A stretch of 64,000 bases of DNA from Patescibacteria group bacterium (GTDB taxonomy: Bacteria > Patescibacteriota > Minisyncoccia > Minisyncoccales > UBA10102). The notes beneath the pieces are model-generated. The model did not search any database. It was given only the letters and a program-made list of their open reading frames with translations, and was not told the origin of the DNA. The position numbers were made by a program, and so were the translations under genes. Location: positions 129,277 through 193,276 of the forward strand of contig JANBVJ010000001.1 of the NCBI GenBank assembly GCA_024239055.1, read 5' to 3'. This document shows positions 1,306 through 60,351 of the stretch, in pieces (position 1 is the first letter of the stretch; every line of letters starts with the position of its first letter).

Positions 1306-1334
1306 TTGACATTTCATTCGTTTTGTTATATGCA
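1306..1334 (+). promoter_or_regulatory. sigma70-like promoter for the 1380 gene
   Basis: TTGACA at 1306-1311; TATGCA at 17-nt spacing (or TATATG at 15 nt). Confidence 0.35.
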
Positions 1335-1379
1335 TAAACCAGCAACTAAAGCTACGAATACTGGATTAAGGAAAACATC

Positions 1380-2207
1380 GTGTTTTTAATTACAGAAGCT
1401 GGGCAGCCAGTTGATGCACTATGTGCTCTTGTCGAGAGGCATAGCGCCATTAGTTCGTCATCATACAGTGATGCCTCAGATCTTTCAGACGGAATTCAAA
1501 AATCTTGGATTAGGAAAACTCCTCATCAGTATCAAATTCCAGGAGGTCCTCCTAAACTGGAAGATGTTGCTATTTTGAGGCAGCTTGGAATGATTTCTGA
1601 AGTTCCAGCTCCTAGAGGTGAATTCGATGGTGCTCTTGTTCTTGGGGGAACTCTTCTCGCCGTTCGAAAGCGTATTCTTTTTCTGAAAGAGCAGTACGAG
1701 AAAGGTACACAGGTAGATAAAATTTATCTGCTTGGCGGAGCTCGTGTACTGAATTCAGAGACTGAGGATATCGGAGCTCTGAATACTCCTCTTCCAGGAT
1801 TACCTTTTGGAAAAGTAGGATGGAGAGTCACAGAAGAACATCTTTCTTATCTTCAGACTGAGGCTGATATGATGGCATTTATTCTTGCACAATCAGATTT
1901 GCCTTTGAGCTGGACGGGTATTCCAGTTAAGACTCCTCTTTGCGAAGATGGATCTGTTCCGGATACGACAGATACGGTAAAGAGATTTCTTTTCCAAGAG
2001 AATCCAGAGCCGGGAGAATACCTTGTTGTTTCCGGGCAACCGTATGTGGCTCGGCAAACGTACAATGTGCAGGAATGCATGCGTGCGCTTGACTTCAGCA
2101 TCACCCCAAGTGGGTATCAGGTTACTCCAACTTTGCCACTAAATGCACATCTTGATGAAGTAGCCAAACTACTTTTTGAAGAAGTCAGATTGTTTAAAGG
2201 TTTATAG
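1380..2207 (+). CDS. hypothetical protein, weak YdcF/DUF218-like pattern; higher-GC islet gene
   Basis: 275-aa ORF with GTG start and AAGGA 8 nt upstream. GC is clearly above the flanks. The pattern GALVLGG..IYLLGGAR..TEADMM..YLVVSGQPYVARQ resembles the DUF218 Rossmann-like layout (recognised by eye only). A terminator follows. Confidence 0.6.
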   Translation: MFLITEAGQPVDALCALVERHSAISSSSYSDASDLSDGIQKSWIRKTPHQYQIPGGPPKLEDVAILRQLGMISEVPAPRGEFDGALVLGGTLLAVRKRILFLKEQYEKGTQVDKIYLLGGARVLNSETEDIGALNTPLPGLPFGKVGWRVTEEHLSYLQTEADMMAFILAQSDLPLSWTGIPVKTPLCEDGSVPDTTDTVKRFLFQENPEPGEYLVVSGQPYVARQTYNVQECMRALDFSITPSGYQVTPTLPLNAHLDEVAKLLFEEVRLFKGL

Positions 2208-2230
2208 GGAATTCACAGCCCTGTGAAATT

Positions 2231-2264
2231 ATGCCCCCTGTATTCGTATGGCGGGCATTTTTTA
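2231..2264 (+). terminator. intrinsic terminator after the 1380 gene
   Basis: ATGCCC..GGGCAT stem followed by TTTTTT. Confidence 0.55.
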
Positions 2265-2304
2265 TTGCAAAAGTAGTAAATATAAGCTAATATACAGTCG
2301 TATT

Positions 2305-3579
2305 ATGGAGAAATTCGTTATTAAAGGGGGCAATTCATTGAAAGGCGAGATAGCGGTTGGAGGCGCCAAAAACGCAGCATTTCCTTTGCTTGCTTCCTCT
2401 ATTCTTACAAAAGAAGACGTTATTATTGAGAATCTTCCTTTGATTGAAGATGTTTTTCGTATTATTGAGATTTTAGAAGGTATGGGGGCAAAGGCTGAAT
2501 GGATAGATAAGAGAACTATAAAATTAAATACTAAGAAATTGGATCCCAAAAAGATAGACAAGGATATTGTGGAACTTCTCAGAGGATCTGTCCTTTTATT
2601 TGGACCTCTACTTGCGCGCTTTGGAAAGGTATATCTTCCGCAACCCGGCGGATGTGTTATTGGAGCTCGTCCCATCGATACTCATTTAGACGCCTTCTCT
2701 CAGTTAGGAGTAAAGGTGAAACCTATGAAAGATGGTTTTGAGTTAAGTTTAAAGAAAAAGCCAAAAGAGGTGGAGGTTATATTAAACGAGTTTTCACCTA
2801 CCGCCACAGAAAACATTCTATTGTTTGCAAGTTTGATGCCAGGTCCCATTACTATAAAGACCGCAGATCAGGATTATCAGGTACAGGAGTTAGTCACGGT
2901 TTTAAAAAAGATGGGGGTTAAGGTATCAATGAAAGGAGCGCATACTCTGGTTATTAAAGGTAAGGCTACATTGAAAGGATACAAGCATAAGCTTATGTAT
3001 GATCCTATCGAAGCTGGAACTTTTATTATTATGGGAGCTGCTACTTTAGGAACCATTACGGTAAAAAACTGTGAACTAGATTTCTTAGAACTTCTTTTAA
3101 AGAGACTTGCTGACTTTGGTGTCCAGTTTGATATTACAAAAAGGCAGGGGAGGAGAGGGGACGTAACAATGTATGAGTCTGGTGATATAAAAATTGATAA
3201 AATACAGACCCTTATCTTTCCTGGGTTGGCTTCTGACTTTCAGAGCGCATTTGGAGTCTTAGCTACCAAGTCACCCGGCTCCACTTTACTTCATGACCCT
3301 ATGTATGAAGGAAGATTAAAGTATTTGGAAGAGTTGAATAAAATGGGAGCTGAGATTTACTTTACTGATCCGCATCGGGCCATTATTAACGGTCCTACAC
3401 AACTCTACGGAACTGATTTGGGTACATATGACTTAAGAGGAGGGGCCGCTCTCATTATTGCTGCCTTAATAGCTCGTGGCACAAGCACTATTAAGAATAT
3501 CTATCAGGTGGACAGGGGATATGAGCGAATTGAGGAGCGACTCCAAAAATTAGGAGCTGACATTCAACGTGTTTCTTAA
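2305..3579 (+). CDS. murA: UDP-N-acetylglucosamine 1-carboxyvinyltransferase
   Basis: MEKFVIKGGNSLKGEIAVGGAKNAAFPLL.. and the active-site context LPQPGGCVIGARPID. I place the start at the internal ATG 2305, because the 2248 extension overlaps the upstream terminator. Confidence 0.93.
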   Translation: MEKFVIKGGNSLKGEIAVGGAKNAAFPLLASSILTKEDVIIENLPLIEDVFRIIEILEGMGAKAEWIDKRTIKLNTKKLDPKKIDKDIVELLRGSVLLFGPLLARFGKVYLPQPGGCVIGARPIDTHLDAFSQLGVKVKPMKDGFELSLKKKPKEVEVILNEFSPTATENILLFASLMPGPITIKTADQDYQVQELVTVLKKMGVKVSMKGAHTLVIKGKATLKGYKHKLMYDPIEAGTFIIMGAATLGTITVKNCELDFLELLLKRLADFGVQFDITKRQGRRGDVTMYESGDIKIDKIQTLIFPGLASDFQSAFGVLATKSPGSTLLHDPMYEGRLKYLEELNKMGAEIYFTDPHRAIINGPTQLYGTDLGTYDLRGGAALIIAALIARGTSTIKNIYQVDRGYERIEERLQKLGADIQRVS

Positions 3580-3627
3580 CTCTTTGCATTTTTTTACTCT
3601 TGTGCTATATTGAATTCAGTGTGGTTT

Positions 3628-3789
3628 ATGGGAAACCGCAGAAGTCACAAGGGGGACGAAATGGCAGCAGAGCAGTATCATTGCGATACATGTGGACTAA
3701 AGATGCGAGAAGATCAGAACACAGGAACTGTATGCCCAGGGGGCATACTTCCATGTGGTGGAAAGTTTAAAAGCTCAAATCAAAACTGA
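3628..3789 (+). CDS. 53-aa Cys-rich (zinc-ribbon-like) mini-protein, below the ORF-track cutoff
   Basis: Own translation: MGNRRSHKGDEMAAEQYHCDTCGLKMREDQNTGTVCPGGILPCGGKFKSSNQN (CxxC ... CxxxxxC). It lies in a local higher-GC patch between murA and mreB. TTGCAT-16-TATATT sits upstream at 3588-3615. Confidence 0.4.
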   Translation: MGNRRSHKGDEMAAEQYHCDTCGLKMREDQNTGTVCPGGILPCGGKFKSSNQN

Positions 3790-3918
3790 TTTCTTGCTCT
3801 TACTCTCAGCAACCGGCTGATTTGTGCTTTACTGCGTAGCCAAAGAACTTGAAAAAGTTCAATCGACAAAAAGCAAGGGGGGAAGGCAAGTTGCTCTCCT
3901 CCCTATAGTTTTATAAAT

Positions 3919-4935
3919 ATGGGTATTTTTATTACAAAAATTGGAATTGATCTCGGTACCGCAAATTCTCTGGTATTCGTGCCGAGAAAGGGAATTGTGT
4001 TGCAGGAACCGTCTGTTGTGGCGGTTTCTCTTGATGATAACAAGATATTAGCGGTTGGGGAGGAGGCAAAAGAAATGACAGGGCGTACTCCTGATACTAT
4101 TCGGGTGTATCGTCCTATGCGAGACGGAGTCATCGCTGACTTTCGGGTGACACAAGCTATGATTCGCCATTTTCTCACGCGTGTTATTCCTCGCTTTCAA
4201 CCAATGAAACCAGAAGTGTTAATCTCAGTTCCAGCTGGTATTACCTCAACAGAAAAGAGAGCAGTCATTGAGGCTACTGTAAACGCAGGAGCTCGTTCAG
4301 CTTATGTGGCGAAAGAACCTATCTTGGCCGCCATTGGAGCTGGTATTCCCATTAACTCTTCTTCAGGACACATGATTGTTGATATTGGTGGAGGGACATC
4401 TGAGGTTGCCGTTATCTCGTTGGGAGGTATTGTGGTTTCTTCCTCGCTGCGCGTCGCAGGAGACAGGTTGGACCGTGCAATTTCAGATTTTATTAAAAAG
4501 AAGTATAACCTTGCTATTGGTGAGAAAACAGCAGAAGACATTAAGATAAAAATTGGGACTGCGGTTCCAGAAAAAGAGGAATTGACCTTTGAAATTAGAG
4601 GACGAGACCTATTACAGGGGTTGCCACGAACAATAAAGATATCTTCAAATGAGGTTGCTCAAGCCATTGCAGAACCATTGGAAGATATTCTGCAGGTGAT
4701 TAAGACTTTGCTCAGAGATACTCCCCCAGAGCTTTCAGCTGACATTATGGATAAAGGTATGGTTCTCTCAGGAGGCGGTGCTTTGCTTCGTAATATTGAC
4801 CAGTTGATTTCCGAATCCATCGGTGTTCCATGTTTTGTGGCTGACAACCCAATGCTTTGCGTTGCAAAAGGTACGGGAGCTGTTTTAGATAATCTGGACG
4901 TGTACAAACGTAGCATTATGCAAAAAAGGAAGTGA
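3919..4935 (+). CDS. mreB: rod-shape actin homolog MreB (paralog 1)
   Basis: IGIDLGTANSLVFV..EPSVVAV..DIGGGTSEVAVISLGG.. actin-fold phosphate motifs. Confidence 0.92.
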   Translation: MGIFITKIGIDLGTANSLVFVPRKGIVLQEPSVVAVSLDDNKILAVGEEAKEMTGRTPDTIRVYRPMRDGVIADFRVTQAMIRHFLTRVIPRFQPMKPEVLISVPAGITSTEKRAVIEATVNAGARSAYVAKEPILAAIGAGIPINSSSGHMIVDIGGGTSEVAVISLGGIVVSSSLRVAGDRLDRAISDFIKKKYNLAIGEKTAEDIKIKIGTAVPEKEELTFEIRGRDLLQGLPRTIKISSNEVAQAIAEPLEDILQVIKTLLRDTPPELSADIMDKGMVLSGGGALLRNIDQLISESIGVPCFVADNPMLCVAKGTGAVLDNLDVYKRSIMQKRK

Positions 4936-12097: not shown

Positions 12098-12105
12098 CAG
12101 AGAAG

Positions 12106-12133
12106 CATCCCCTTATAGGGGGTGTTTTATTTT
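12106..12133 (+). terminator. intrinsic terminator after the tRNA cluster
   Basis: CATCCCCT-TAT-AGGGGGTG stem followed by TTTTATTTT. Confidence 0.6.
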
Positions 12134-12199
12134 AGACCTCATGGTATATTTAATATGGTTCTTTAAATGACAACACAAAATCTTACCGGAGAGGTAACC

Positions 12200-12769
12200 A
12201 TGGGGTCTTTAGATAGACTTGCAGAAATTGCAAATAAACATGGAAGACCTCCTGGAGAGCATGGTCTTTCGGCTGGAGGAACATCCAATACTTATTTTGA
12301 CGGCAAACATGTTATTGGATTCTCAGAAGTACTTAAAATCACAGTAGATACTCTTTTGAACATTCTTCCTCAATACTATATTGTAGGGATTGGAGGTCCA
12401 GCGGTAGGCGCAATTTTAGTGGTTGGAGCTACTGCTGACCGTTATGGACAAGGTGGATGTTCTATTGATACATTCTATATTCGTTCTGAAGAGAAATTAC
12501 ATGGCACCAAGCAGCGATTAGAAGGCTATCTTCCAGAGAATGGAAAAGTTGCACTCTTTGATGACACCATCACTACTGGCAATTCACTTCTGAAAACTAT
12601 TGAGTTTGTGGAAGATCGAGGATGTGAGGTTGTGATAGTGACAGCTCTATTAGACCGTCAAGAGGGAGGTCTTGAGCGTATTCGCGATGCTGGTTACGAT
12701 GCTCTTGCTCTTCTTAAAATGGAACCAGATGGAAATATTATTCCTGTTGATATCTGGAATCGTCCATGA
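12200..12769 (+). CDS. type I phosphoribosyltransferase, orotate-PRTase (PyrE)-like; higher-GC islet gene
   Basis: PRPP loop VALFDDTITTGNSLLKTIEFVEDRGCEVVIVTALLDRQEGG and LSAGGTSNTYFD. The ORF opens at 12167, but GGAGAGG sits 5 nt before the ATG at 12200. Confidence 0.75.
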   Translation: MGSLDRLAEIANKHGRPPGEHGLSAGGTSNTYFDGKHVIGFSEVLKITVDTLLNILPQYYIVGIGGPAVGAILVVGATADRYGQGGCSIDTFYIRSEEKLHGTKQRLEGYLPENGKVALFDDTITTGNSLLKTIEFVEDRGCEVVIVTALLDRQEGGLERIRDAGYDALALLKMEPDGNIIPVDIWNRP

Positions 12770-12823
12770 GCCGCTGGTTAATTATTGGTGGCTTTTTTCT
12801 TTGTTCATGTGGATAAATATGGG

Positions 12824-20057: not shown

Positions 20058-20086
20058 TTGACCAGCGGATTATTCCGTGGTATTTT
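20058..20086 (+). promoter_or_regulatory. promoter of the GC-rich HIT gene
   Basis: TTGACC, 17 nt, TATTTT, with TGg immediately upstream of the -10. Confidence 0.5.
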
Positions 20087-20126
20087 ATTAAAACAAACAA
20101 GTATGCACATACTGGAGGTGAGTTGA

Positions 20127-20615
20127 TTGTCTGCTACGAATGAAATAACGAATTCAGGGGAACTTGTCGATACAAAATACGCTGGCGAAGCTGGGGAAGG
20201 CGCCTCAGAATACCGCCGGATACTCGATAGAGCAGAGGAAAGACAAGAGTGTCCTTTCTGCCCCGAGTTCCTCCAGCAGGGGAATGAGGTTCTCCACAAG
20301 GTGTCTGGATGGAGCGTAATCTCCAACAAGTGGCCTTACGAGAACGCAGAGACCCATCTGCTGTTTATTCCAGACCGTCACATCACCGACATCGTGGATG
20401 TGGTGCTCAGGGATTGGTTCGCAATCAGAAAGGCGACTGCCTGGGCGCGAGAGCAATACGGGGCCCTCATGGATGGTGGCGCCCTCGTCGTAAGGTATGG
20501 CCTGCGTTCTGGGGTTACAGTGCGCCATCTCCATTTCCAGCTCATTACCGCAAGGGTGGATCCTGAGACTGGAGAGGTGCCAGAAGGTAAACACGTCGTC
20601 TTCCCAATTGGATAA
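20127..20615 (+). CDS. HIT-superfamily protein, GalT-branch-like (CPFC knuckle + HxHxQ); higher-GC islet gene
   Basis: TTG start 6 nt after GGAGGTG. It has ECPFCPEF.., WPYENAETHLLFIP, and RHLHFQLI. GC is about 55% against about 40% in the flanks. Confidence 0.75.
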   Translation: MSATNEITNSGELVDTKYAGEAGEGASEYRRILDRAEERQECPFCPEFLQQGNEVLHKVSGWSVISNKWPYENAETHLLFIPDRHITDIVDVVLRDWFAIRKATAWAREQYGALMDGGALVVRYGLRSGVTVRHLHFQLITARVDPETGEVPEGKHVVFPIG

Positions 20616-20632
20616 GCTACTGGGGTGGCTGC

Positions 20633-20668
20633 GAAGAGTCGGTTGGAAACTTCCGACTCTCTTCTTTT
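20633..20668 (+). terminator. intrinsic terminator after the HIT gene
   Basis: AGAGTCGG..CCGACTCT stem followed by a T-rich run. Confidence 0.6.
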
Positions 20669-21520: not shown

Positions 21521-21967
21521 CTATCCTCCAATAGAGAGACTTACTTTCTTTGTACGTTTTGTTTTTTTGTCTTTCTTGGGAGAGAAGAGATGAAAATGGA
21601 GGTGGGTTACAGAGGCTCCAGTCACGCTTGTTTTGCCGAATCTTCCCATAAAGAGTCCGCCCTTGATTTTATATTCTCTAACAGCCCATTTCGCAAGGCC
21701 TAGGATAGTTTGCAGGTCTTTTGTTGTTAGTTCTAATAGGGTCTCTTTGTGCGTGAAGTTTAAGATAATAAAGTGATGGTTCGTGTTTTTGTAAGGCCAG
21801 CTGTTTTTCGTAATAAACCATCCTTCTTTGCGTTTAAGGATAGGGTTTTTGTGATACTTGAAATTCTCCTTGCAGAACGGACACTTTCCTCTGGATTGTA
21901 TCTTTGCAATAACTTTCTCGTACTCTCCCTTCCGAGCGTTTTTGAGGTTTACTACCTCTTTAGTCAT
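21521..21967 (-). CDS. HIT-family protein (CPFC knuckle + HxHxH), native-composition paralog of the 20127 gene
   Basis: KCPFCKENF.., WPYKNTNHHFIIL, THLHFHLF. Its start ATG 21967 overlaps the upstream stop by 8 nt (ATGACTAA). Confidence 0.8.
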   Translation of the reverse strand: MTKEVVNLKNARKGEYEKVIAKIQSRGKCPFCKENFKYHKNPILKRKEGWFITKNSWPYKNTNHHFIILNFTHKETLLELTTKDLQTILGLAKWAVREYKIKGGLFMGRFGKTSVTGASVTHLHFHLFSPKKDKKTKRTKKVSLSIGG

Positions 21968-36147: not shown

Positions 36148-36229
36148 GCTCTTGACAAATAAATAATTGTATGTTAGCATATAATTATTGAGACTTCCTC
36201 ATTGCCGGTCTATTCAGAAGGGGAATGTA

Positions 36230-36442
36230 ATGGCCAGCTCTTCTAGCACAAATAACGTCACACGCAAGTTCATAGTAAGCGCGAAAGCGAATGAAGTACC
36301 ATCAGATACTGAGATTCTCCGCGCAGAACTTCTTGCAATATCATGGGTTGAAACAGTAGTAACTCTCCCAGGTGGATTTGCCGGTTTTTCAGCTGATGGA
36401 AATCTAGATCTTGTTGTGAAGACGGGGTCATTGGATGACTAG
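36230..36442 (+). CDS. hypothetical 70-aa protein; higher-GC islet gene
   Basis: ATG at 36230 after GAAGGGG: MASSSSTNNVTRKFIVSAKANEVPSDTEILRAELLAISWVETVVTLPGGFAGFSADGNLDLVVKTGSLDD. TTGACA at 36152. Confidence 0.45.
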   Translation: MASSSSTNNVTRKFIVSAKANEVPSDTEILRAELLAISWVETVVTLPGGFAGFSADGNLDLVVKTGSLDD

Positions 36443-36492
36443 TAGGAAGGTTTGAGCGATGAAGATATATTTAATTAATCTGTCACTCAAAC

Positions 36493-36538
36493 CCAATCAC
36501 TTGAGTATATAATATAGATTGTATTTTCAAGTGATTGG
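36493..36538. repeat. perfect 12-bp inverted repeat CCAATCACTTGA / TCAAGTGATTGG enclosing a TATAAT-containing 22-nt spacer
   Basis: Read directly from the sequence. It lies 34 nt upstream of the 36572 ORF. The ATCACTTG core recurs at 36901. Confidence 0.8.
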
Positions 36539-36571
36539 AACGCAAATTAACAATTCAAGGGGAGGGGACTT

Positions 36572-36853
36572 ATGTCCTTTATTATTATTGGGATTATTGC
36601 TTACTTTATAGTAGGTATAATCCTCGAAATTCTTCAATATTTTCACATTCCGTGGATTTTCCGACCAAAACGAGGATGGAAATTATTAAGGGATTTCTTA
36701 CTTGGCATTTCATTGTGGCCTTTAACGGCTATTGGTATGGCAATTTTTATGCTCAGGGGAAAGAATCCCTGGGTCGGAAAAAACATGATGGTAAGTATAA
36801 AAGAGACTATCCACCATGGAGATGGCACCACAACTGAAACCAGTTGGCCATAA
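36572..36853 (+). CDS. hypothetical 93-aa membrane protein
   Basis: Very strong SD GGGGAGGGG 5 nt before the ATG, and two hydrophobic helices (FIIIGIIAYFIVGIILEIL; LLGISLWPLTAIGMAIFML). I prefer it to the overlapping 36535 frame. Confidence 0.55.
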   Translation: MSFIIIGIIAYFIVGIILEILQYFHIPWIFRPKRGWKLLRDFLLGISLWPLTAIGMAIFMLRGKNPWVGKNMMVSIKETIHHGDGTTTETSWP

Positions 36854-36983
36854 AATTCTAGCTAGTAGAATAACAAAAAAAGAGGAAGTCAATTAGCTAT
36901 CACTTGTGATATGACTTCCTCCTATACTTGAGTTCATAACAATAGTTATGAATTGAAATATAGGAATATTAAAATTAGATATA

Positions 36984-38592: not shown

Positions 38593-38664
38593 GGGGGTGT
38601 AGTGTCAGCGGTAGCACGATGGTTTCCAAAACCATTAGCCTGGGTTCGAATCCTAGCACCCCTG
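38593..38664 (+). tRNA. tRNA-Trp(CCA)
   Basis: Hand fold: GGGGGTG/CACCCCT acceptor, anticodon loop TTCCAAA, T loop TTCGAAT. The CCA anticodon is consistent with UGA being a stop. Confidence 0.9.
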
Positions 38665-38712
38665 CGGATTATTGACAGTACCACAGAGATGTGGTATTGT
38701 TTTTAGAGAACC
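38642..38712 (+). repeat. direct repeat copy 1: tRNA-Trp 3' end plus promoter/operator (TTGACA-17-TATTGT)
   Basis: TCCTAGCACCCCTGC..TTATTGACAGTACCACAGAGATGTGGTATTGTTT. The palindrome ACCACA-GAGA-TGTGGT lies at 38680-38695, with -35 at 38672-38677 and -10 at 38695-38700. Confidence 0.8.
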
Positions 38713-38736
38713 ACCTGTTTCATCGGAGGAGCAGAA

Positions 38737-38931
38737 ATGATAGAAGAAAGGCCGAGCCTTAAAGCTGTCTTTGATGCTCGTACCTGTGACAGCTCGATTG
38801 ACGGATGTGACCCTGACTGGCGAGACTGGGTCTTAAGAAACGCTGACCCTGAGCACATGGCAGCAATAGATGAAGCTTTTCGTCAAGGCACGGAAAGTGA
38901 AGCAAAACTCAATCTTGGCATCTGGCCATAG
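38737..38931 (+). CDS. hypothetical 64-aa acidic protein (cassette gene 1)
   Basis: GGAGGAG SD 5 nt upstream; higher GC; MIEERPSLKAVFDARTCDSSIDGCDPDWRDWVLRNADPEHMAAIDEAF.. Confidence 0.6.
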   Translation: MIEERPSLKAVFDARTCDSSIDGCDPDWRDWVLRNADPEHMAAIDEAFRQGTESEAKLNLGIWP

Positions 38932-38941
38932 GAGGTAAGAA

Positions 38942-39325
38942 ATGGTTAAAGAAACCGAAGTACAGGAAAGCCCAGTTTTGACACTCCCCGAAGATGCTGA
39001 GCGAGTTGAGATGCTTCGCAGAAAACTCGGGGAGTACGAAGAACGTATCGAAACCTACCATGACGAGAACCAAAGTCAACATCCTGCATTCAGAGCGTTG
39101 CAGTTAGCAACCACGACCTGCAAGATGACCATCCTCAAGCAATTACTGGATGAAGGTAGGGTGGTTGCCTGGGATGCTTCCAAGGCGTTTATAGATGAAC
39201 GTCTGGAAGAAAATAAGAGCTCAGGAGCTCATTTCGCCGAAGCATGGATGACAGCATTTGAGGTCATCAATGACTACTGCGAAACAGGAGGTGCAAATGT
39301 AGGCGGTGGAACTGGACTGCGTTAG
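38942..39325 (+). CDS. hypothetical 127-aa helical acidic protein (cassette gene 2)
   Basis: GGAGGT SD; higher GC; I recognise no motif; followed by a terminator. Confidence 0.6.
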   Translation: MVKETEVQESPVLTLPEDAERVEMLRRKLGEYEERIETYHDENQSQHPAFRALQLATTTCKMTILKQLLDEGRVVAWDASKAFIDERLEENKSSGAHFAEAWMTAFEVINDYCETGGANVGGGTGLR

Positions 39326-39347
39326 CTTCCTGTATCAACTCGTAACA

Positions 39348-39385
39348 AGCCCCAACGAGTATAAATAAGGGGCTCTTTTCTTTTA
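39348..39385 (+). terminator. intrinsic terminator after cassette gene 2
   Basis: AGCCCC..GGGGCT stem followed by CTTTTCTTTT. Confidence 0.6.
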
Positions 39386-39432: not shown

Positions 39433-39510
39433 GAGTTCTGAACTTGTCCAAGAACCCCTGCTATTTATTGACGATACCGCAGAGATGTGGTATTGTTTGT
39501 TTAGAGACAA
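39433..39510 (+). repeat. direct repeat copy 2: degenerate tRNA-Trp 3'-end relic plus promoter/operator (TTGACG-17-TATTGT)
   Basis: GAGTTCTGAA..TCCAAGAACCCCTGC (13/15 identical to tRNA-Trp positions 38651-38665), then TTATTGACGATACCGCAGAGATGTGGTATTGTTT. Confidence 0.75.
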
Positions 39511-39531
39511 AGGGAGACAAGGAGAAACATC

Positions 39532-39756
39532 GTGGATATCCCTAGGGATAAAACCTATCCAGAAGAAAGCGTTCAATGTCATGGATGCGGTGGGAATGGA
39601 TGTCAGAAGTGCGACAATCGTGGATGGTTAACTCCTCAAGATCATCCAGACGGGCGACGATGTGCATACTTAAAATGTAATCGTCCGCTTCCTCCAACAC
39701 TGGTTGCCGTCTATCATTCTGATGAATGCGCAAAATTGGACGCACAAGTTCTTTGA
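39532..39756 (+). CDS. 74-aa DnaJ-type zinc-finger mini-protein
   Basis: GTG start after AGGAGA. CHGCGGNGCQKCDNRGW (CxxCxGxG-type) plus a second Cys/His cluster CAYLKC..HSDEC. Confidence 0.55.
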   Translation: MDIPRDKTYPEESVQCHGCGGNGCQKCDNRGWLTPQDHPDGRRCAYLKCNRPLPPTLVAVYHSDECAKLDAQVL

Positions 39757-39769
39757 AAAGGAGGTTATC

Positions 39770-39961
39770 ATGGCAAAAGGCTGTGAAGAGCGAATATGCA
39801 GATGTGGCTATTCAGTTGTCTGCACATGGATGGCAGAAGCTTGGAGTCCATTTCCTGTAATTATTAGGGCAGTAAAAAAACAGGAAGAGGAAGAGATTCC
39901 TGATCAAATCTGCCCAAACTGCAAGGAACCCATTAATATGCAGAATACGGTTCTCGTGTAA
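39770..39961 (+). CDS. 63-aa zinc-ribbon mini-protein
   Basis: AGGAGG SD 6 nt before ATG 39770: MAKGCEERICRCGYSVVC..ICPNCKEPINMQNTVLV. Confidence 0.55.
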   Translation: MAKGCEERICRCGYSVVCTWMAEAWSPFPVIIRAVKKQEEEEIPDQICPNCKEPINMQNTVLV

Positions 39962-40062
39962 TGCAACTGCTCCTTGGAAGGCTAACCTGCAATAGGTCGG
40001 CCTTTTTCTTTGTATAAGAAAACACCCCTATTAAGAGGTGCTTTCTACAATGTGTGTAACTC

Positions 40063-40383
40063 TTACATCTTTGCTGAACCCGGCAAAGCTATACCCATCT
40101 TGTTTAAGTTTCGAAAGATGGAGGCTAACAGGGCTACGGCAACAAGAACAAAGACAACTGGGACTATGAATCCAAGAGAAGGAATAGCTTGTCCTACGAG
40201 TGAGATTACTGCAAATCCAAAGACATATCCTACAATTCCTTTTTTCATAAATCCAGCTACTTTGCCAAACCGGAACTGTTTTTTCATAACAGCTCCCACT
40301 AGTCCCAATATGACGTCAATTCCTATTAAGATGACAATATACTGGGTGAAGTTGCCTGCAAGTATATCTGTTAATGTTGGCAT
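40063..40383 (-). CDS. phage-holin-family membrane protein (holin_4 / toxin-secretion-lysis holin-like)
   Basis: 106 aa with 3 TM segments. IDVILGLVGAVMKKQFRFGKVAGFMKKGIVGYV and the C-terminal ASIFRNLNKMGIALP match, by eye, the ..D.ITG...A.K...S..G..G..KK.. and ..NE.ISILEN...G..IP pattern of that family. A minus-strand hairpin plus T-run lies at 40017-40045. Confidence 0.55.
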   Translation of the reverse strand: MPTLTDILAGNFTQYIVILIGIDVILGLVGAVMKKQFRFGKVAGFMKKGIVGYVFGFAVISLVGQAIPSLGFIVPVVFVLVAVALLASIFRNLNKMGIALPGSAKM

Positions 40384-49386: not shown

Positions 49387-49414
49387 TATATAAGTAGTAA
49401 ATACTCTCTTTACT

Positions 49415-51236: not shown

Positions 51237-51547
51237 ATATTCTTCTATCATTCTCATATCAACGTAAGTTAGTCTGGGTGGCATCTATCCTCTTAATAGT
51301 GCTTTTGCTCTCCTTATATATTGTTCAGGTAAACCTATTAACAGGTTCTGCCTTCAATATCTCCTCTTTAGAAGGTCAGCTAAAGGAGTTGCGTGAATCC
51401 AATAAGAGCTTGGAGAGGACATATATGGAGACCATTCAACTTCGTAACTTGGATGAATTGGCATCAGTTATGGGATTTGAAAAAATCGGCTATGTATCCT
51501 ATATTAAAGTAATAGATACTGCCGTTGCCCAGAACTTATCTGAATAA
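51233..51547 (+). CDS. ftsL: FtsL-like bitopic cell-division protein
   Basis: 104 aa, one TM helix then a coiled segment. It sits between rsmH and ftsI, with ATGA and TAATG overlaps. Confidence 0.5.
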   Translation: MNILLSFSYQRKLVWVASILLIVLLLSLYIVQVNLLTGSAFNISSLEGQLKELRESNKSLERTYMETIQLRNLDELASVMGFEKIGYVSYIKVIDTAVAQNLSE

Positions 51548-53238: not shown

Positions 53239-53263
53239 GGAATGTCTTAAATTATGGTATAGT
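53235..53263 (+). promoter_or_regulatory. tRNA-Glu promoter
   Basis: TTGAGG (overlapping the ftsI stop), 17 nt, TATAGT with TGg upstream. Confidence 0.5.
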
Positions 53264-53273
53264 ATGCTCTATT

Positions 53274-53345
53274 GGCCCTATCGTCTAGTGGCTAGGACGC
53301 TGCCCTCTCACGGCAGAAACGGGAGTTCGACTCTCCCTAGGGTCA
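53274..53345 (+). tRNA. tRNA-Glu(CTC)
   Basis: Hand fold: GGCCCTA/TAGGGTC acceptor, anticodon loop CTCTCAC, T loop TTCGACT. Confidence 0.9.
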
Positions 53346-53352
53346 CAGATTG

Positions 53353-53381
53353 TTGACAAAGCATATAATATATGCTTTTAT
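53353..53381. promoter_or_regulatory. TTGACA followed by a perfect 19-bp palindrome AAGCATATA-A-TATATGCTT (operator/promoter, or a weak tRNA terminator)
   Basis: Read directly from the sequence: palindrome at 53359-53377, followed by TTTATTT. Confidence 0.5.
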
Positions 53382-53454
53382 TTGTTTAGCGATATATAAA
53401 AAATGAAACAGTTCATCGATTGGGTATCTGGCTATACTGAGAAGGAGAGAACTT

Positions 53455-53931
53455 ATGCCGCAGATTAATTTGGACGCACCAATTAGCTGGTACGAAAACA
53501 GGAAGCTGAGTCTTGTAGAAGGCTTGACTCTAAGAAAAGAACTGAAACCTGTATTCTTTTTAGAAACAGGTCCCATAAGAGAAGAAGACGAGCTAGGGCG
53601 ACTTCCAGTATCCCTCATAATAAGAGAGAGAGAAAGTAACAAATCTCTTCTAGCAGTCTCCTTTATAGAGTTCATTGAGTCATCAGAGCTCACATGGATA
53701 AGTGTTCCAATATCAGCTCTCTTGGAAAAAGATATCCAAACACTTATCAGTGCTGGGATTGTATCCCTATCAAGTCTCGAGATTGGCATAGTGGACGGAA
53801 GTGATGAGGTCTACTTCGACATCAAACTTCAAAATCCAACCATGGAAAGACTGAGTCGAATACTGGAAGCACGATGCTCCCTTAAAGAAGCGTCTGCGGT
53901 ATTCGTAATCGAAAACCCTCTTTTTTCGTAG
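53455..53931 (+). CDS. hypothetical 158-aa protein; islet gene next to tRNA-Glu
   Basis: GAAGGAGAG SD 5 nt upstream. Higher GC than the flanks. I recognise no motif. A hairpin plus T-run follows at about 53945-53980. Confidence 0.6.
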   Translation: MPQINLDAPISWYENRKLSLVEGLTLRKELKPVFFLETGPIREEDELGRLPVSLIIRERESNKSLLAVSFIEFIESSELTWISVPISALLEKDIQTLISAGIVSLSSLEIGIVDGSDEVYFDIKLQNPTMERLSRILEARCSLKEASAVFVIENPLFS

Positions 53932-54004
53932 TCAAACGCCATGCAGCGGTAAGATCATTAAAATCATGCCGCTTTTTCTTTTGGTTTTATGATATAATAT
54001 TGGA

Positions 54005-56611: not shown

Positions 56612-57576
56612 TTCTCAATATTCTTTTATTAATAGCTTCGGGAGCCATACTTTTTTGGTCAGCAAACCAGATTGTGAAAGGAGTTACATTTGCCGCCAAC
56701 TACTTTAAATGGAGTGAGTTTGTTATTGCTTTTTTTGTCATGGCATTGGCCGGAGCTCTTCCCAACCTATTCGTAGGACTTTCTTCTGTTGCACACGGCA
56801 TTCCAGAACTATCTTTTGGAGATGTGGTAGGAAGTAGTGTTGTAGACTTGACCTTGGTAGTTGCTATTGCGGTCTTTATAGGAGGGGGATTGAGCGCCAA
56901 GGGAAAGACAGTACAGGCATCCTCTGTCTTTGCTATTTTTATTGCCATACTCCCATTACTTCTGATTTTAGATGGTACACTGAGCCGAGGGGATGGAGCT
57001 GCCTTAATTCTAATCTTCATTGCATATACTGCCTGGCTGATTACTAAAAGAAGAAAATTTTCTGCAACCTTTAATAATAATGAGGAAGAACGACCAACGG
57101 TTAAATTTCGTGCTTTGTTTCTAAACTTCATTAGAATGCTAATAGGAATGGCGCTCCTTTTGGTAGCCGCTGAAGGTATGGTGAGATCTATGACGTTCTT
57201 TGCCACGGCTTTTCGGCTTCCTGTTATCCTTTTGGGAATTCTTGTAAGCGGTCTGGGCACGTCTTTACCAGAAGCTTACTTTGCAATAACTGCTGCTAGA
57301 AAAGGGAAAGGAGATATTATTATGGGAGACTTAATGGGTTCTGTTATTGTTGCCTCTTCTTTAGTTTTGGGTATTGTAGCTATACTTCAACCTATTATTA
57401 TTGAAGACTTTTCCCCATTTGCCATAGCCCGTTTCTTTGTCTTTTTTGCCGCCCTCTTTTTCCTCTTGTTTGTGAGAACCGAGCGCAGAGTAACTAAAAA
57501 AGAAGGTATATTCCTTCTTGGGATTTATATTGCCTTTGTTGTTGCAGAAATCATCTCTCATTCCATTGGAATGTAA
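56608..57576 (+). CDS. CaCA-family Na+(H+)/Ca2+ exchanger (YrbG-like)
   Basis: Two alpha-repeat motifs, GDVVGSSVVDL and GDLMGSVIVASSL. ATGA overlap with the ATPase stop. Confidence 0.8.
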   Translation: MILNILLLIASGAILFWSANQIVKGVTFAANYFKWSEFVIAFFVMALAGALPNLFVGLSSVAHGIPELSFGDVVGSSVVDLTLVVAIAVFIGGGLSAKGKTVQASSVFAIFIAILPLLLILDGTLSRGDGAALILIFIAYTAWLITKRRKFSATFNNNEEERPTVKFRALFLNFIRMLIGMALLLVAAEGMVRSMTFFATAFRLPVILLGILVSGLGTSLPEAYFAITAARKGKGDIIMGDLMGSVIVASSLVLGIVAILQPIIIEDFSPFAIARFFVFFAALFFLLFVRTERRVTKKEGIFLLGIYIAFVVAEIISHSIGM

Positions 57577-57598
57577 TAATGTGATAAGCTAAAGACAT

Positions 57599-58651
57599 AT
57601 GGATATAATCTTTATATTGATTGCCTCTATATTGGTTATTGGAGCTGGAGTTTCAGCTGGAGTATTTTTCCTGCGCCGTGAAATAAGAAGTTCAAAGACA
57701 ACAGTAGAGAATACGAGTTTCCTTATGCTCCAGAACCAATTGAATGAACTGCAGCGGTCTGTAGATAGCAAACTGGGGGATTCTTCCAAGATGCTCCACC
57801 AACAGCATTCAGAGTCCACAAAGATTATTCAAAACCTTACTGAAAAACTTACCCAATTAGACGAGACCAATAAACAGGTCTTAAACTTTTCTGACCAGTT
57901 ACGAAACCTGCAGGATATCTTAAAAAACCCAAAGCATAGGGGAATGCTGGGGGAGTATCATTTGGAAACTCTCTTGAAAAATGCGTTTAATCCGACGCAG
58001 TATGAAATGCAGTATAGATTTAAGGATGGCAAAACCGTAGATGCAGTGCTATTTATGGGAGATAAGATAATTCCTATTGATTCTAAATTCTCTCTTGAAA
58101 ACTACAATAAAATTGTAGAAGAAAAAGATGAAAACATTAGAGCTGAGTATGAAAAAGCATTTCAGCAGGATTTAAAGAATAGAATTGACGAAACTGCAAA
58201 ATATATACGCCCAGAGGAGGGGACTATGGAGTTTGCCTTTATGTTTATTCCCGCAGAAGGCATATTCTATGACCTCTTGGTAAATAAGATAGGAGCTATT
58301 AAGTCTAATACCCGAGATTTGATTGATTACGCTATTAACGAAAAAAAGGTACATATTGTCTCCCCAACAACGTTCTACGTAACTCTGCAGAGTATGTGGC
58401 AGGGAATGCGAGCGTATCAGATACAGGAATCTACAAAAGATATATTAAAGAACATCACTCTGCTAAGCCGTCACCTAAAGGCGTATGACGAACATATGCA
58501 GCGTCTTGGGAATCAAATGGGTACTATTGTAAGAACATATAACACAGCCTCAAAAGAGTTTGGCAAGATAGATAAAGATGTCTTAAAGCTTACAGGTTCC
58601 TCTAATAAAACAGATGTACTAGAGCTTGACTTGCCTCATAAAGAGGAGTAA
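57599..58651 (+). CDS. rmuC: DNA recombination protein RmuC
   Basis: N-terminal TM, coiled coil, then ..RGMLGEYHLETLL..VDAVLFMGDKIIPIDSKFSL.. typical of RmuC. Confidence 0.85.
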   Translation: MDIIFILIASILVIGAGVSAGVFFLRREIRSSKTTVENTSFLMLQNQLNELQRSVDSKLGDSSKMLHQQHSESTKIIQNLTEKLTQLDETNKQVLNFSDQLRNLQDILKNPKHRGMLGEYHLETLLKNAFNPTQYEMQYRFKDGKTVDAVLFMGDKIIPIDSKFSLENYNKIVEEKDENIRAEYEKAFQQDLKNRIDETAKYIRPEEGTMEFAFMFIPAEGIFYDLLVNKIGAIKSNTRDLIDYAINEKKVHIVSPTTFYVTLQSMWQGMRAYQIQESTKDILKNITLLSRHLKAYDEHMQRLGNQMGTIVRTYNTASKEFGKIDKDVLKLTGSSNKTDVLELDLPHKEE

Positions 58652-58693
58652 ACAAAAGGAAGGTACCTAAACAATCAAGATCGGAGATCACAG

Positions 58694-59254
58694 TTGACTG
58701 ACGTTTCTATAACTACAGAAACAGCCTACGAGCCCGAACTACGGGGCTCAATACCGTGGGTCATACAGTTGTATCCAGGGGTTCGGGGAGAAAATCTTGA
58801 GTTCTACGCCATTCATCTTTGGAATAGAATCCAGGAAGAAGCGCGTGTTCATCCGCCAGATCCGTATGCGCAGATGGCTTGTAACCAGACATTGGGGCTG
58901 TTTGGCACCTTCTTGGTGCTACTCCCTGGAGGTCAAACTTCAACAAAGGGCATACGGGATCTACTTGAAGACAGGAGTCAAAAGTGGCCTTGGAACGGAG
59001 CATCACCCCCAGGTCCACATACTGTTCTTTTGGCACCCAAACAAGCCAGGCGCAAGACCTCGTTCTTTAACGCCCTTCTGGAAGTGCTCATCAGTTCAGA
59101 ATCTACGGGACAAGCAAAGGAAAAGCAAAAGCTTGCTGCAAGTCTCGTGGCCATGTTCTTTAGTGGACATCCCAGTAAAATGCGGGAGCTTGCAAAGCTT
59201 GTATCTTCTGGAGTACACTATGGAGGTCACTCCAGTATTTCAGTGGATGATTAA
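58694..59254 (+). CDS. hypothetical 186-aa protein; higher-GC islet gene
   Basis: TTG start 6 nt after GGAGA. GC is about 50%. The frame was chosen over two overlapping alternative-frame ORFs on amino-acid plausibility. I recognise no motif. Confidence 0.5.
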   Translation: MTDVSITTETAYEPELRGSIPWVIQLYPGVRGENLEFYAIHLWNRIQEEARVHPPDPYAQMACNQTLGLFGTFLVLLPGGQTSTKGIRDLLEDRSQKWPWNGASPPGPHTVLLAPKQARRKTSFFNALLEVLISSESTGQAKEKQKLAASLVAMFFSGHPSKMRELAKLVSSGVHYGGHSSISVDD

Positions 59255-59273
59255 CCGTCAAACAGGCATTCAA

Positions 59274-59310
59274 GAGGTACGTTCCATTTATGGAAAACGG
59301 CCTCTTTTTT
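59274..59310 (+). terminator. intrinsic terminator after the 58694 gene
   Basis: GAGGTACGTT..AACGGCCTC stem followed by TTTTTT. Confidence 0.55.
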
Positions 59311-59311
59311 A

Positions 59312-59339
59312 TTGACTTTCTCCATATTTCCCATATAAT
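59312..59339 (+). promoter_or_regulatory. rplU promoter
   Basis: TTGACT, 16 nt, TATAAT, and 9 nt to the ATG. Confidence 0.6.
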
Positions 59340-59348
59340 ACTTCTTGT

Positions 59349-59660
59349 ATGTTTGCAGTAATAAAAACAGGGGGAAAGCAATATATTGTTGAACCTGGAA
59401 CAAAACTAAAAATAGAGAAACTCAAAGAAACTGAGGGTGATATTGTATTTAACGAAGTACTTTTAGTTGAAAAGAACAAAAAGCTTCAAATAGGGGAGCC
59501 TACGGTTGAGGGAGCTAAGGTTATAGGAAAGATGATTGGAGAGGGCAAGAGAAAGAAAGTAGTTATTATGAAATACAAGGCAAAGAAGCGTCAGCGCACA
59601 AAAACAGGGCACAGACAACTATATACTGAGGTGGAAATTACAAAGATTGATACAAAATAA
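59349..59660 (+). CDS. rplU: 50S ribosomal protein L21
   Basis: MFAVIKTGGKQYIVEPG..KVVIMKYKAKKRQRTKTGHRQLYTEVEI. Confidence 0.95.
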   Translation: MFAVIKTGGKQYIVEPGTKLKIEKLKETEGDIVFNEVLLVEKNKKLQIGEPTVEGAKVIGKMIGEGKRKKVVIMKYKAKKRQRTKTGHRQLYTEVEITKIDTK

Positions 59661-59709
59661 AGAAGGCCGTCCGTAAGGATCAGCCCTCTTCTTTTTTTTC
59701 TCTGGAAAG

Positions 59710-60243
59710 CTATAGTCGATAGCGCTTTGCCACAAAGTCTGAGATCAACGTAGCAAAGTAGCCAAAGCCTGCGACAAAAGCTACAAAGACGGCAGGAGAC
59801 CACTGCCGTTCACCCATTATCATGAGAACGACCATCGCTATACCCATGAAACCCAGAATGTACTGAGCTGCAAAGTAAGCCAGGTGGATTCTCCCGACGA
59901 GTGATACTGCCCCAATGTAGGGGTATAAGGAATTTGGTATCTGCCGCGGCCCCAGATAAATCCGGTGCCACAGTGCAGTCCAAGCAATTCCTACCAGGAA
60001 GCAGACGGTTACTACCCAAATTGGCAAAGGCCATCTCTCCACTAGGACAAATGCTATTGCAAAATCCATAATAGAAAGAAACCATCTATCTCCCCATTTA
60101 AAGAAGTTTAAATCCTGCAAATACAGAATTTCTCCTCTTGGGGGAATTGTGCCCTTTGCAACCGACCTCCGCTCCGAAGAAAGGAGGAGGAAAACAAAGA
60201 GAAAATTCAAGACTACAGCTAGGGCTCCAATAAATATACCCAC
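59710..60243 (-). CDS. hypothetical 177-aa polytopic membrane protein; higher-GC islet gene
   Basis: GTG start 7 nt after AAGGAG. There are 5-6 hydrophobic helices. GC is about 50%. Confidence 0.6.
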   Translation of the reverse strand: MGIFIGALAVVLNFLFVFLLLSSERRSVAKGTIPPRGEILYLQDLNFFKWGDRWFLSIMDFAIAFVLVERWPLPIWVVTVCFLVGIAWTALWHRIYLGPRQIPNSLYPYIGAVSLVGRIHLAYFAAQYILGFMGIAMVVLMIMGERQWSPAVFVAFVAGFGYFATLISDFVAKRYRL

Positions 60244-60297
60244 GTTCTATCTCCTTCTGGCACTTATGCCCCAACAAATTGTATTCGAACTAAATAA

Positions 60298-60326
60298 ACA
60301 ATATCACATATTGTAATATTTGTCAA
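60298..60326 (-). promoter_or_regulatory. promoter of the 60243 gene with an inverted repeat over the -10
   Basis: On the minus strand: TTGACA, 17 nt, TATTGT. ACAATAT-GTG-ATATTGT (60298-60314) overlaps the -10. Confidence 0.55.
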
Positions 60327-60351
60327 CTCTTTAAAATTTCTTAAATTAAGG

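Follow-up and report, generated by a model that had tools for sequence, protein, structure and literature searches.

Small Shine-Dalgarno-led genes in short, partly variable slots between Shine-Dalgarno-less core operons of a Patescibacteria genome segment

Why should a bacterium whose conserved genes lack Shine-Dalgarno (SD) sequences carry, scattered among them, small genes that have strong ones? The question is raised by a 64,000-nucleotide stretch of a Patescibacteria group bacterium (assembly GCA_024239055.1, contig JANBVJ010000001.1, positions 129,277 to 193,276 of the forward strand), referred to here in its entirety as the window and numbered from its first letter. A preliminary description had singled out eleven short segments, called islets here and numbered 1 to 11 in order (1306-2264, 3585-3900, 12100-12790, 20055-20670, 24235-24540, 36150-36450, 38665-40440, 46230-46440, 53350-53995, 58660-59310 and 59665-60330), as a distinct, higher-GC gene pool that was probably acquired from an SD-using host bacterium or phage. 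In this study, we show that the small genes of the islets, SD-led and self-contained, form a class of their own among SD-less operons, as that description had proposed, and that at least 5 of the 11 carry evidence of turnover or acquisition. These genes probably form an accessory pool of portable expression units that is internal to the candidate phyla radiation (CPR) and is superimposed on a core whose translation does not depend on SD sequences. The organism itself is, on balance, a Wildermuthbacteria-like Parcubacterium with a genome of two such layers. One islet protein falls in a cluster of at least 90% identity with a member labelled Candidatus Wildermuthbacteria, and the closest representatives in GTDB are Patescibacteria, with GyrB identities of no more than 68%.

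The class is defined by its translation initiation signals. We compiled a map of 72 genes with refined starts from public gene calls with Pfam labels and a six-frame reading, and calculated, over positions -20 to -3 of each gene, the energy of the duplex with the anti-SD sequence ACCUCCUUA. The energies were bimodal and separated the two classes: -7.9 kcal/mol or lower was reached by 11/15 islet genes, all with a spacing of 5-10 nt, and by 2/57 others (Fisher p = 3.1e-8), which bears out the proposed split. The SD-led islet genes, with energies from -7.9 to -12.3 kcal/mol, are 3661-3789, 20127-20615, 24257-24487, 36230-36442, 36572-36853, 38737-38931, 38942-39325, 39532-39756, 39770-39961 and 53455-53931 on the forward strand and 59710-60243 on the reverse strand. 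The two nonislet genes that reach the SD range, Rnc and S16, have an atypical spacing (14 and 11 nt, respectively), and in both the motif lies within upstream coding sequence. All 18 housekeeping genes that had been named as SD-less scored above -3.5, and the five SD examples that had been quoted are all present at their places.

How, then, do the core genes start? Typically, the first gene of a core operon has a TATAAT-like box that ends 6-10 nt before its start codon; PheS, dCMP deaminase, RnhB, the P-type ATPase, L21 and MreB are among the examples, and the geometry is kept in orthologs. From the position of this -10 box, such genes are predicted to be leaderless. Other core starts are coupled to the upstream gene of the operon or follow an A/U-rich 5' untranslated region (UTR) that has no SD. 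Because KhpA, MraZ and L10 have leaders of 45-100 nt and yet no SD, the possession of a leader cannot alone account for the SDs in the islets. Anti-SD activity could not be deduced from an avoidance of SD-like motifs within coding sequence, as no such avoidance was seen.

Comparison with relatives shows that several of these places exchange their contents. A metagenome scan with TrmD, combined with a profile search, yielded one close relative (assembly SDBV01, GCA_004196275.1), represented by two contigs, L091 and L173. Core identity between the window and this relative is 76-90% for proteins and 76-85% at the nucleotide level, and the two have the same tRNA-Trp sequence. Nucleotide collinearity with L091 extends over 34901-36191 and 36973-38670, and with L173 over 51452-53394, 53985-59657 and 60352-63818. 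Four of the eleven islets coincide with the interruptions (36192-36972, the stretch after 38670, 53395-53984 and 59658-60351), and the cargo in these four gaps is nonhomologous or very divergent. In all, four or five islets lie within demonstrable turnover slots. In the synteny comparison that had been suggested, four islets thus fall in collinearity gaps; a five-transmembrane-segment (5-TM) protein and a 93-aa open reading frame (ORF), both within such gaps, and a 186-aa ORF keep their positions in relatives. Two other comparisons served less well. The marine-sediment contig L085 is 99.4% identical to the window and represents the same species, so it is uninformative on turnover, and GTDB representatives found through GyrB were too distant (68% identity or less) for islet synteny, except for that of a HIT-family gene in the Buchananbacteria locus L026.

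The slots differ in what is retained. In the slot between S16 and KhpA (36152..36972, forward strand), a resident promoter (36152-36180) precedes a 70-aa ORF (36230-36442, SD AAGGGG) and the 93-aa membrane protein ORF (36572-36853, SD GGGGAGGGG at 36559-36567). L091 keeps the flanking promoter and terminator with different cargo, namely, a homolog of the 93-aa protein (40% identity) and an unrelated SD-led gene of 126 aa with a GC content of 0.55. The 3' flank of tRNA-Trp holds islet 7 in the window, whereas Def follows the tRNA directly in L095 and L098, which represent empty sites; L093 has a homolog of a holin-like protein with other DNA, and in L091 the place is taken by genes for a 312-aa protein, a DDE transposase and a membrane protein, the last of them GC-rich and SD-led. 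The tRNA-Glu slot (53342..53984, forward strand) has a resident promoter at 53342-53369, directly after the tRNA (53274-53346), and contains a 158-aa orphan (53455-53931, SD GAAGGAGAG) that matched only itself among 5.8e9 proteins; in L173 the same slot is filled by two unrelated genes with strong SDs and a GC content at third codon positions (GC3) of 0.54-0.56. Overall, the slot genes of L173 and L091 are SD-led and have GC3 values of 0.52-0.58, versus 0.37-0.45.

The slot between L21 and RecR (59658..60351, reverse strand), itself one of the four gaps, is occupied throughout by one family. Its promoter (TTGACA-17-TATTGT, 60326-60298) and a bidirectional terminator (59660-59699) enclose the gene for the 5-TM membrane protein (59710-60243), which has a GTG start and the SD GAAGGAGA. 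This family has 13 homologs, all from CPR, at 50-80% identity; the slot is syntenic in L086-L090 and L173, two tandem paralogs are present in the Wildermuthbacteria loci, and the promoter, an AAGGA motif and a GTG or TTG start are conserved in three lineages. In every genome the gene exceeds its neighbours in GC3 by about 0.1-0.17. Its identity is 28% in the close relative L173 versus 58-66% in more distant genomes. Since position, SD and promoter are conserved across Wildermuthbacteria-level distances, an outcome that the preliminary description had itself named as contrary to import, the foreign status claimed for this islet is not supported. An AlphaFold model of the protein (pLDDT of 77) contains five confident helices and has no fold match in the PDB. 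A conserved hairpin in the 5' UTR, upstream of the SD, seemed to show compensatory changes and was rejected on folding z-scores of -0.4 to -0.9. The 186-aa gene likewise keeps a collinear slot in L173, at 49% identity between flanking genes of 82-90%, and is missing from the RmuC-L21 junction of L087.

Two of the slots are attached to tRNA genes, and there the borders are informative. Islet 7 begins 1-6 nt past tRNA-Trp (38665), and the tRNA-Glu slot begins after 53346. The first unit of islet 7, designated 7a, is flanked on both sides by copies of a 59-nt direct repeat (38651-38709 and 39447-39505, 81% identical) that comprises the last 15 nt of tRNA-Trp together with a TTGAC-N17-TATTGT promoter; the second copy carries a degenerate tRNA 3' end, and the repeat unit measures 796 bp. 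In L173, a 430-bp unit with its own -10 box, an SD (GGAGGG), a 47-aa ORF and a terminator is inserted exactly at the 3' end of tRNA-Glu, between two exact 18-nt copies of GGGTCACAGATTCTTGAC, which consists of the tRNA 3' end and the -35 box; relative to this unit, the tRNA-Glu locus of the window is in the uninserted state. Both repeats score 25/32 matches, compared with a maximum of 20/32 in 81 upstream controls. No repeats were found at the window's own tRNA-Glu and tRNA-Asp flanks, and none beyond chance flank the other islets. The called genes of the window contain no Pfam match to an integrase and the islet ORFs contain none; the DDE transposase of L091 is the sole mobility gene seen. The earlier statement that all three tRNA clusters have an islet on their 3' side holds for tRNA-Trp and tRNA-Glu but not for tRNA-Asp, which is followed by a native phosphoribosyltransferase (PRTase) gene.

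As observations in their own right, exact copies of 14-18 nt of a tRNA 3' end occur 76-300 nt downstream of tRNA-Leu in L013, tRNA-Ser in L158, tRNA-Gly in L168 and tRNA-Ile in L134, and downstream matches of at least 21/32 were scored for 6/65 tRNAs, including the two cassette cases, versus 0/81 upstream controls. These four further copies may be scars of att sites or may be tandem tRNA genes.

Composition gave a weaker signal than had been supposed. Against a background of 0.398, whole-segment GC contents are, from islet 1 to islet 11, 0.431, 0.437, 0.410, 0.518, 0.464, 0.419, 0.436, 0.398, 0.395, 0.479 and 0.449, so the range of 47-55% that had been assigned to all eleven segments applies to islets 4 and 10, which rank in the top 0.2% and the top 1.4% of same-length windows, respectively, but not to the other nine (0.395-0.464). 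As a class, islet genes have a GC content of 0.452 versus 0.393 for the others (p = 5e-6), an excess of 0.05 at first, 0.084 at second and 0.042 at third codon positions (p = 0.04 for GC3); it is mainly a matter of protein composition. Core genes have a mean GC3 of 0.337 (standard deviation, 0.042), and the outliers are the HIT gene 20127-20615 (0.57, z = 4.9), the 5-TM gene (0.48, z = 3.0), 38942-39325 (0.46, z = 2.4) and the 186-aa gene 58694-59254 (0.44, z = 2.2). The GC3 comparison that had been called for thus identified about four atypical genes, with the excess located mainly in the first two codon positions, and the idea of a uniform higher-GC signature gives way to one in which most islets have native GC3. 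Structured RNA as the source of the GC bumps was discarded after an Rfam search of the listed islets (gathering thresholds and E ≤ 5) returned no match.

The HIT-family cassette (20058..20668, forward strand) is the clearest case of unusual composition. It consists of a promoter (TTGACC-17-TATTTT, 20058-20086), a coding sequence (20127-20615) with a TTG start, the SD GGAGGTG at 20114-20120 and a GC content of 0.54, and a terminator (20633-20668). The product contains the motif HLHFQL (HxHxQ), scores 22.3 bits with Pfam DcpS_C and 18.0 bits with HIT, each under the cutoff, and matches HIT proteins in the PDB down to E = 8e-5. A native paralog (21521..21967, reverse strand; HxHxH, SD-less, GC content of 0.40) is 30% identical to it. 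In the Buchananbacteria locus L026, a HIT gene (HxHxH) after dCMP deaminase encodes a protein that is 51% identical to the native paralog and 36% identical to the SD-led one, and the position of the latter between dCMP deaminase and ThyA recurs there; L085 carries the same HIT arrangement as the window. The sole other member of the subfamily that was found is 38% identical, has HxHxQ and lies in a ThyA-DHFR-HIT operon on a contig with a GC content of 0.51 (GC3, 0.58). These features fit a second copy putatively acquired from an organism of higher GC content. The surrounding genes form a pyrimidine deoxynucleotide cluster (19221-24231) of dCMP deaminase, HIT, ThyA, HIT (reverse), a CTP-transferase-like gene (reverse), DHFR, Tmk and Dcd, and in L026 and L171, too, HIT is linked to ThyA, DHFR or dCMP deaminase; this linkage suggests a role in nucleotide metabolism for this uncharacterized HIT subfamily.

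If the genes move, where do they come from? All islet-protein homologs that were found derive from CPR or from unclassified metagenome contigs and lie in matching slots, and at 90% identity every islet protein falls in a cluster of one or two members from this organism. Searches of PHROGs, NCBIfam, Pfam and PDB sequences gave no phage or non-CPR signal for them apart from one weak holin match, and three scans of IMG/VR returned no relatives, so neither the host bacterium nor the phage that had been proposed as donor finds support in these data. A prophage remnant was considered and set aside on the same grounds, the holin-like protein (PHROG E = 7e-4) being its only trace. Attempts to name the orphan products by Pfam, NCBIfam and PDB sequence searches yielded nothing. 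Islet and core promoters belong to one type.

Three other explanations need to be weighed against a CPR-internal pool. Recent import from an SD-using, non-CPR donor of higher GC content, a host bacterium or phage whose GC content and SDs were retained, would account for the composition of the HIT gene and a few others, for the GC3 of 0.54-0.58 in slot genes of L173, and for the holin-like gene of islet 7 and the transposase in the L091 slot; Firmicutes loci, moreover, are SD-rich by the same scoring. However, the donor searches came back empty outside CPR and unclassified metagenome contigs except for that one holin match, the islet promoters are of the core type, GC3 is mostly native with the excess in codon positions 1 and 2, and the 5-TM gene is conserved together with its SD across CPR lineages, which makes such an origin distinctly improbable. 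The reverse position, that nothing was transferred and that these are native, vertically inherited, fast-evolving, lineage-specific genes with SDs for gene-specific regulation and a GC1 and GC2 excess that reflects protein composition, has more in its favour. The excess is indeed mainly nonsynonymous, the 5-TM, 93-aa and 186-aa ORFs hold their positions in relatives, a native linkage of the HIT family with thymidylate genes exists in CPR, and in all 94 CPR loci surveyed (see below) the SD-led genes are in the minority. We nevertheless consider this unlikely, as slot genes differ in number, orientation and length between flanks that are 76-85% identical at the nucleotide level, and strict vertical descent fits poorly with the clean 430-bp indel and its exact 18-nt repeat, the 796-bp unit and its 59-nt repeat, the empty tRNA-Trp sites of L095 and L098, a 5-TM protein less similar in the closest relative than in distant ones, and a HIT gene with a GC3 of 0.57 versus 0.34 for the core. 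Finally, the small ORFs might not be genes at all, with SD-like motifs and GC bumps arising by chance in intergenic DNA, hairpins and tRNA neighbourhoods. Several segments do have background GC contents, promoter- and terminator-like sites are overall no commoner than in shuffled sequence, and some ORFs of 42-76 aa are singletons or were missed by the public gene caller. Such an artefact is very improbable in view of the enrichment of SDs at 5-10 nt spacing in exactly the islet class (p = 3e-8), their enrichment in the 94 loci at the ribosome-binding but not the control position, the homologs or orthologs of the HIT, 5-TM, 186-aa and 93-aa ORFs, and the five confident helices of the 5-TM model.

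The accessory-pool reading, which we prefer, must itself be held against several results that weigh against it. Since the GC excess lies mostly in GC1 and GC2, long-standing residents or native genes would explain it no less well than imports, and the remaining eleven islet genes do not deviate from the core in GC3. SD-like motifs in core coding sequence are not depleted (GGAGG observed/expected, 1.03). The ORFs of 42-76 aa have no support from conservation or expression; neither a recombinase nor a circular form was observed, nor did another lineage show a near-identical copy; and islets 1, 2, 5 and 8 are covered by no close relative. The nonhomologous cargo could conceivably reflect extreme divergence, though gene number, orientation and length differ too. 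As for the SDs, they are presumably functional on the ribosome of this organism; its 16S rRNA gene is absent from the window, and the anti-SD is often lost in Parcubacteria.

If the accessory-pool reading is correct, the genome would have two layers. The first would be a core that starts translation without an SD, by leaderless, coupled or SD-less-leader initiation. The second would consist of about ten short slots that separate core operons, those at the 3' flanks of tRNA-Trp and tRNA-Glu among them, and each unit in these slots would comprise a sigma-70-type or resident promoter, a leader of 30-60 nt with a well-spaced SD, an ORF and an intrinsic terminator, with orphan, membrane or Cys-rich small proteins as cargo. 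The slot genes would represent a flexible genome that is gained, lost or swapped between CPR lineages, on the one hand by insertion at specific sites, the tRNA 3' ends, with no integrase carried by the cassette, and on the other by replacement through recombination in conserved flanks. Some units would be recent, with GC3 still high (HIT and 38737-39325), others would have become native in composition, and the 5-TM family would be a permanent occupant that is replaced by divergent versions. The mechanism of recombination, and the idea that complete canonical signals make the slot genes transferable, we infer. It can also be envisioned, although we regard this wider proposal as tentative and rather doubtful, that CPR (Parcubacteria) genomes possess a cassette-exchange system of their own, in which sub-kilobase, integrase-less units use tRNA 3' ends and the places behind resident promoters as specific insertion sites, can stack in tandem and supply rapidly changing small membrane and Cys-rich proteins, as a separate SD-dependent class in an SD-independent clade with partial anti-SD loss.

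Is the SD-less core peculiar to this organism? By a crude, uniform metric, SD-led ORFs make up 0-15% of nearly all Patescibacteria loci, over GC contents of 0.29-0.53, whereas Erysipelotrichaceae loci retrieved with the same query contain 30-60%; the SD-less core is a clade-wide trait. Among 1520 ORFs from 94 Patescibacteria loci, an SD was present at the ribosome-binding position in 6.2% and at a control position in 2.9%. The SD-led genes of these loci are shorter and exceed the locus median GC3 by 0.036 (p = 3e-5), whereas matches at the control position show no GC3 shift. SD usage did not correlate with GC content among the CPR loci beyond the control position, which speaks against higher-GC CPR, as heavier SD users, being the donors. 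In addition, two Wildermuthbacteria loci (L088 11576-14909 and L090 7844-11207) have, upstream of L21, three genes encoding a 242-aa protein, a 626-aa HATPase_c_3 protein and a 243-aa protein, with GC contents of 0.55-0.58 and strong SDs beside SD-less core genes; this cluster extends the islet phenomenon to a further lineage and may be a defence system.

The window contains no rRNA gene. In Parcubacteria, about half of the 16S rRNAs are reported to lack the anti-SD motif, a group that overlaps with the one lacking uL1 (Tsurumaki et al. 2022, PMC9297842). Among nine related loci in which a 16S 3' end was found, six (L103, L125, L143, L153, L154 and L170) keep GGATCACCTCCTTTCT, in five distinct sequences given that the tails of L153 and L154 are identical, and three (L134, L161 and L166) have lost CCTCC, for example, as GGATTATTTCTTTT. 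Strong SD-led genes number about one per locus in both the intact and the lost group, counts too small to interpret. In the window, L11 (18743-19165) is followed by dCMP deaminase instead of L1, and L10 and L7/L12 are located at 43209-44199, 24 kb from L11, with a subthreshold match to the L10 leader at 43094-43215 (37.7 bits versus a cutoff of 44). The organism may lack uL1, as does the Parcubacteria subgroup in which the anti-SD is often missing (PMC9297842).

The arrangement is reminiscent of several known systems and is identical to none of them. Like tRNA-associated genomic islands and integrative elements, the units insert exactly at the tRNA 3' end, are flanked by direct repeats containing that end, vary in presence and cargo between relatives, and can be stacked by successive insertions. 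Unlike those elements, they measure only 0.4-0.8 kb, contain no integrase or other mobility gene, have a repeat that reaches into or includes the promoter, and carry cargo of mostly native GC3. Like the units described here, integron cassettes and the integrase-less, Xer-dependent pdif modules of Acinetobacter plasmids are small units of one or two genes with their own ribosome-binding site, and their recombinase is encoded outside the unit. Exchange at a fixed site beside a resident promoter, as in the S16-KhpA and tRNA-Glu slots, resembles these systems; however, several of the present units (7a, 7b, HIT and 5-TM) bring their own promoter and terminator, and no IntI-like gene, attI, attC or dif-like 28-bp site was identified, with no search aimed at attC-like structures. 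In the streamlined genomes of Prochlorococcus and Pelagibacter, hypervariable flexible-genome islands of tens of kilobases occupy conserved positions. These share with the slots their sharp borders between collinear core blocks, cargo that is often membrane related and of unrecognized function, and the exchange of the resident version for a divergent allele by recombination in the flanks, as in the L21-RecR slot, but the slots are sub-kilobase in size and are marked by a translation initiation signal that differs from that of the core. Finally, most genes are SD-less in Bacteroidota, where the anti-SD is sequestered, in the leaderless-rich Actinobacteria and Deinococcus, and in anti-SD-less Parcubacteria (PMC9297842); the -10 box near the start codon and the seeming absence of uL1 beside L11, as in the anti-SD-poor Parcubacteria subgroup, are further points of likeness, whereas here a discrete set of accessory genes, a minority, retains SDs that are strong and well spaced. 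In the literature searched, such a split by gene class is not described.

Should the pattern extend to the whole genome, a strong SD would serve as a marker of the flexible genome in uncultured, host-dependent bacteria, whose accessory genes are mostly orphans that resist annotation, and would point to their fastest-changing small membrane and Cys-rich proteins, which are plausible candidates for interaction with hosts or phages. It would also tie the loss of the anti-SD in about half of Parcubacteria to the question of whether SD-led accessory genes are then lost, silenced or retained. Gene calling could be improved as well, since several islet genes are missed or misframed in the public calls: 20127-20615, 36230-36442, 39532-39961 and 59710-60243 are affected, and the 42-aa ORF at 3661-3789 is likewise missing.

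The remaining islets range from complete cassettes to ordinary genes. Islet 2 is a small-gene cassette (3583..3820, forward strand) with a promoter at 3583-3611 (TTTGCA-17-TATATT with TG), the 42-aa, zinc-ribbon-like ORF (SD AAGGGGGA at 3649-3656, -10.5 kcal/mol; native GC3 of 0.33) and a terminator-like hairpin (3806-3820). Unit 7a (38651..39384, forward strand) has the promoter TTGACA-17-TATTGT (38672-38700) containing the palindrome ACCACAGAGATGTGGT, ORFs of 64 aa (38737-38931; GC3, 0.43) and 127 aa (38942-39325) with a strong SD each, and a terminator at 39347-39384. In 7b (39447..40011, forward strand), a promoter (39468-39496) and a terminator (39978-40011) enclose two Cys-rich ORFs, each with an SD, of 74 aa (39532-39756, CxxCxGxG-like) and 63 aa (39770-39961). 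Within the same variable tRNA-Trp flank, the opposite strand encodes the holin-like membrane protein of 106 aa (40063..40383), which has no SD and native GC content, carries the Pfam label Phage_holin_4_1, is the source of the weak PHROG holin match, and has a 53% homolog at the equivalent place in L093.

The statement that every islet has its own promoter and terminator is true of most but not of islets 5 and 10. The 76-aa ORF of islet 5 (24257-24487, forward strand; SD AAGGGGTAG, -8.4 kcal/mol; GC3, 0.39; terminator 24506-24530) starts 25 nt past the Dcd stop codon without a promoter of its own, forms a singleton cluster and has no counterpart between Tmk and GatB in L004 and L092. The 186-aa ORF of islet 10 (58694-59254, forward strand; TTG start; weak SD GGAGAT; terminator 59274-59313; GC content of 0.49), also promoterless, starts 42 nt past the stop codon of RmuC, and its family comprises only three other 50%-identity clusters among 1.84e9 proteins. 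Islet 8, located in a divergent intergenic region, contains a Cys-rich ORF of 42 aa (46275-46403, forward strand) with a weak SD and a terminator at 46402-46436; its four Cys residues are arranged in two pairs, and it resembles the zinc-ribbon-like ORF of islet 2, as small Cys-rich proteins recur among the islet products. It showed no conservation in the related CPR loci examined and is a reading of the sequence alone. Two segments fall outside the class of SD-led islets: islet 1 is a 275-aa gene of unknown function (1380..2207, forward strand) with a weak SD (TAAGGA, -6.1 kcal/mol) and a native GC3 of 0.30, and islet 3 is the native PRTase gene (12167..12769, forward strand), which has no SD and a GC3 of 0.24 and is conserved in other CPR loci.

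Several slot promoters have a short palindrome in the spacer between -35 and -10, with arms of 4-6 bp and a loop of 2-4 nt, whose sequence differs each time. Palindromes of this kind occur in the window at 20058-20086, 38672-38700, 39468-39496, 53342-53369 and 60326-60298 (reverse strand) and in L173 at 1905-1933 and 2334-2362, examples being CCACAgagaTGTGG, CGGAttatTCCG, GCATAt..aTATGC and ATATTacAATAT; they could be operators or recombination sites, or they could be due to chance.

Outside the listed islets, a noncoding island with a GC content of about 0.51 lies between clpB and mraZ (49412-49705, reverse strand), with a promoter at 49738-49710 (TTGACA-17-TAATAT) and an intrinsic terminator at 49440-49422, both on the same strand. 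Its 294-nt transcript has a predicted folding energy of -112 kcal/mol (z = -4.96; opposite strand, -3.98), with no Rfam family at E ≤ 10 and no homolog in 2.1 Mb of CPR loci, and is a candidate for a novel structured RNA. The DnaB gene of a related lineage (L086 and L087) contains a LAGLIDADG intein, which the DnaB of the window lacks. The two MreB-family paralogs (3919-4935 and 8550-9620), which are 4.6 kb apart, have in common a 63-nt stretch that is 83% identical, and an AbiEii toxin-like gene lies just past the right end of the window (L082 21658-22607).

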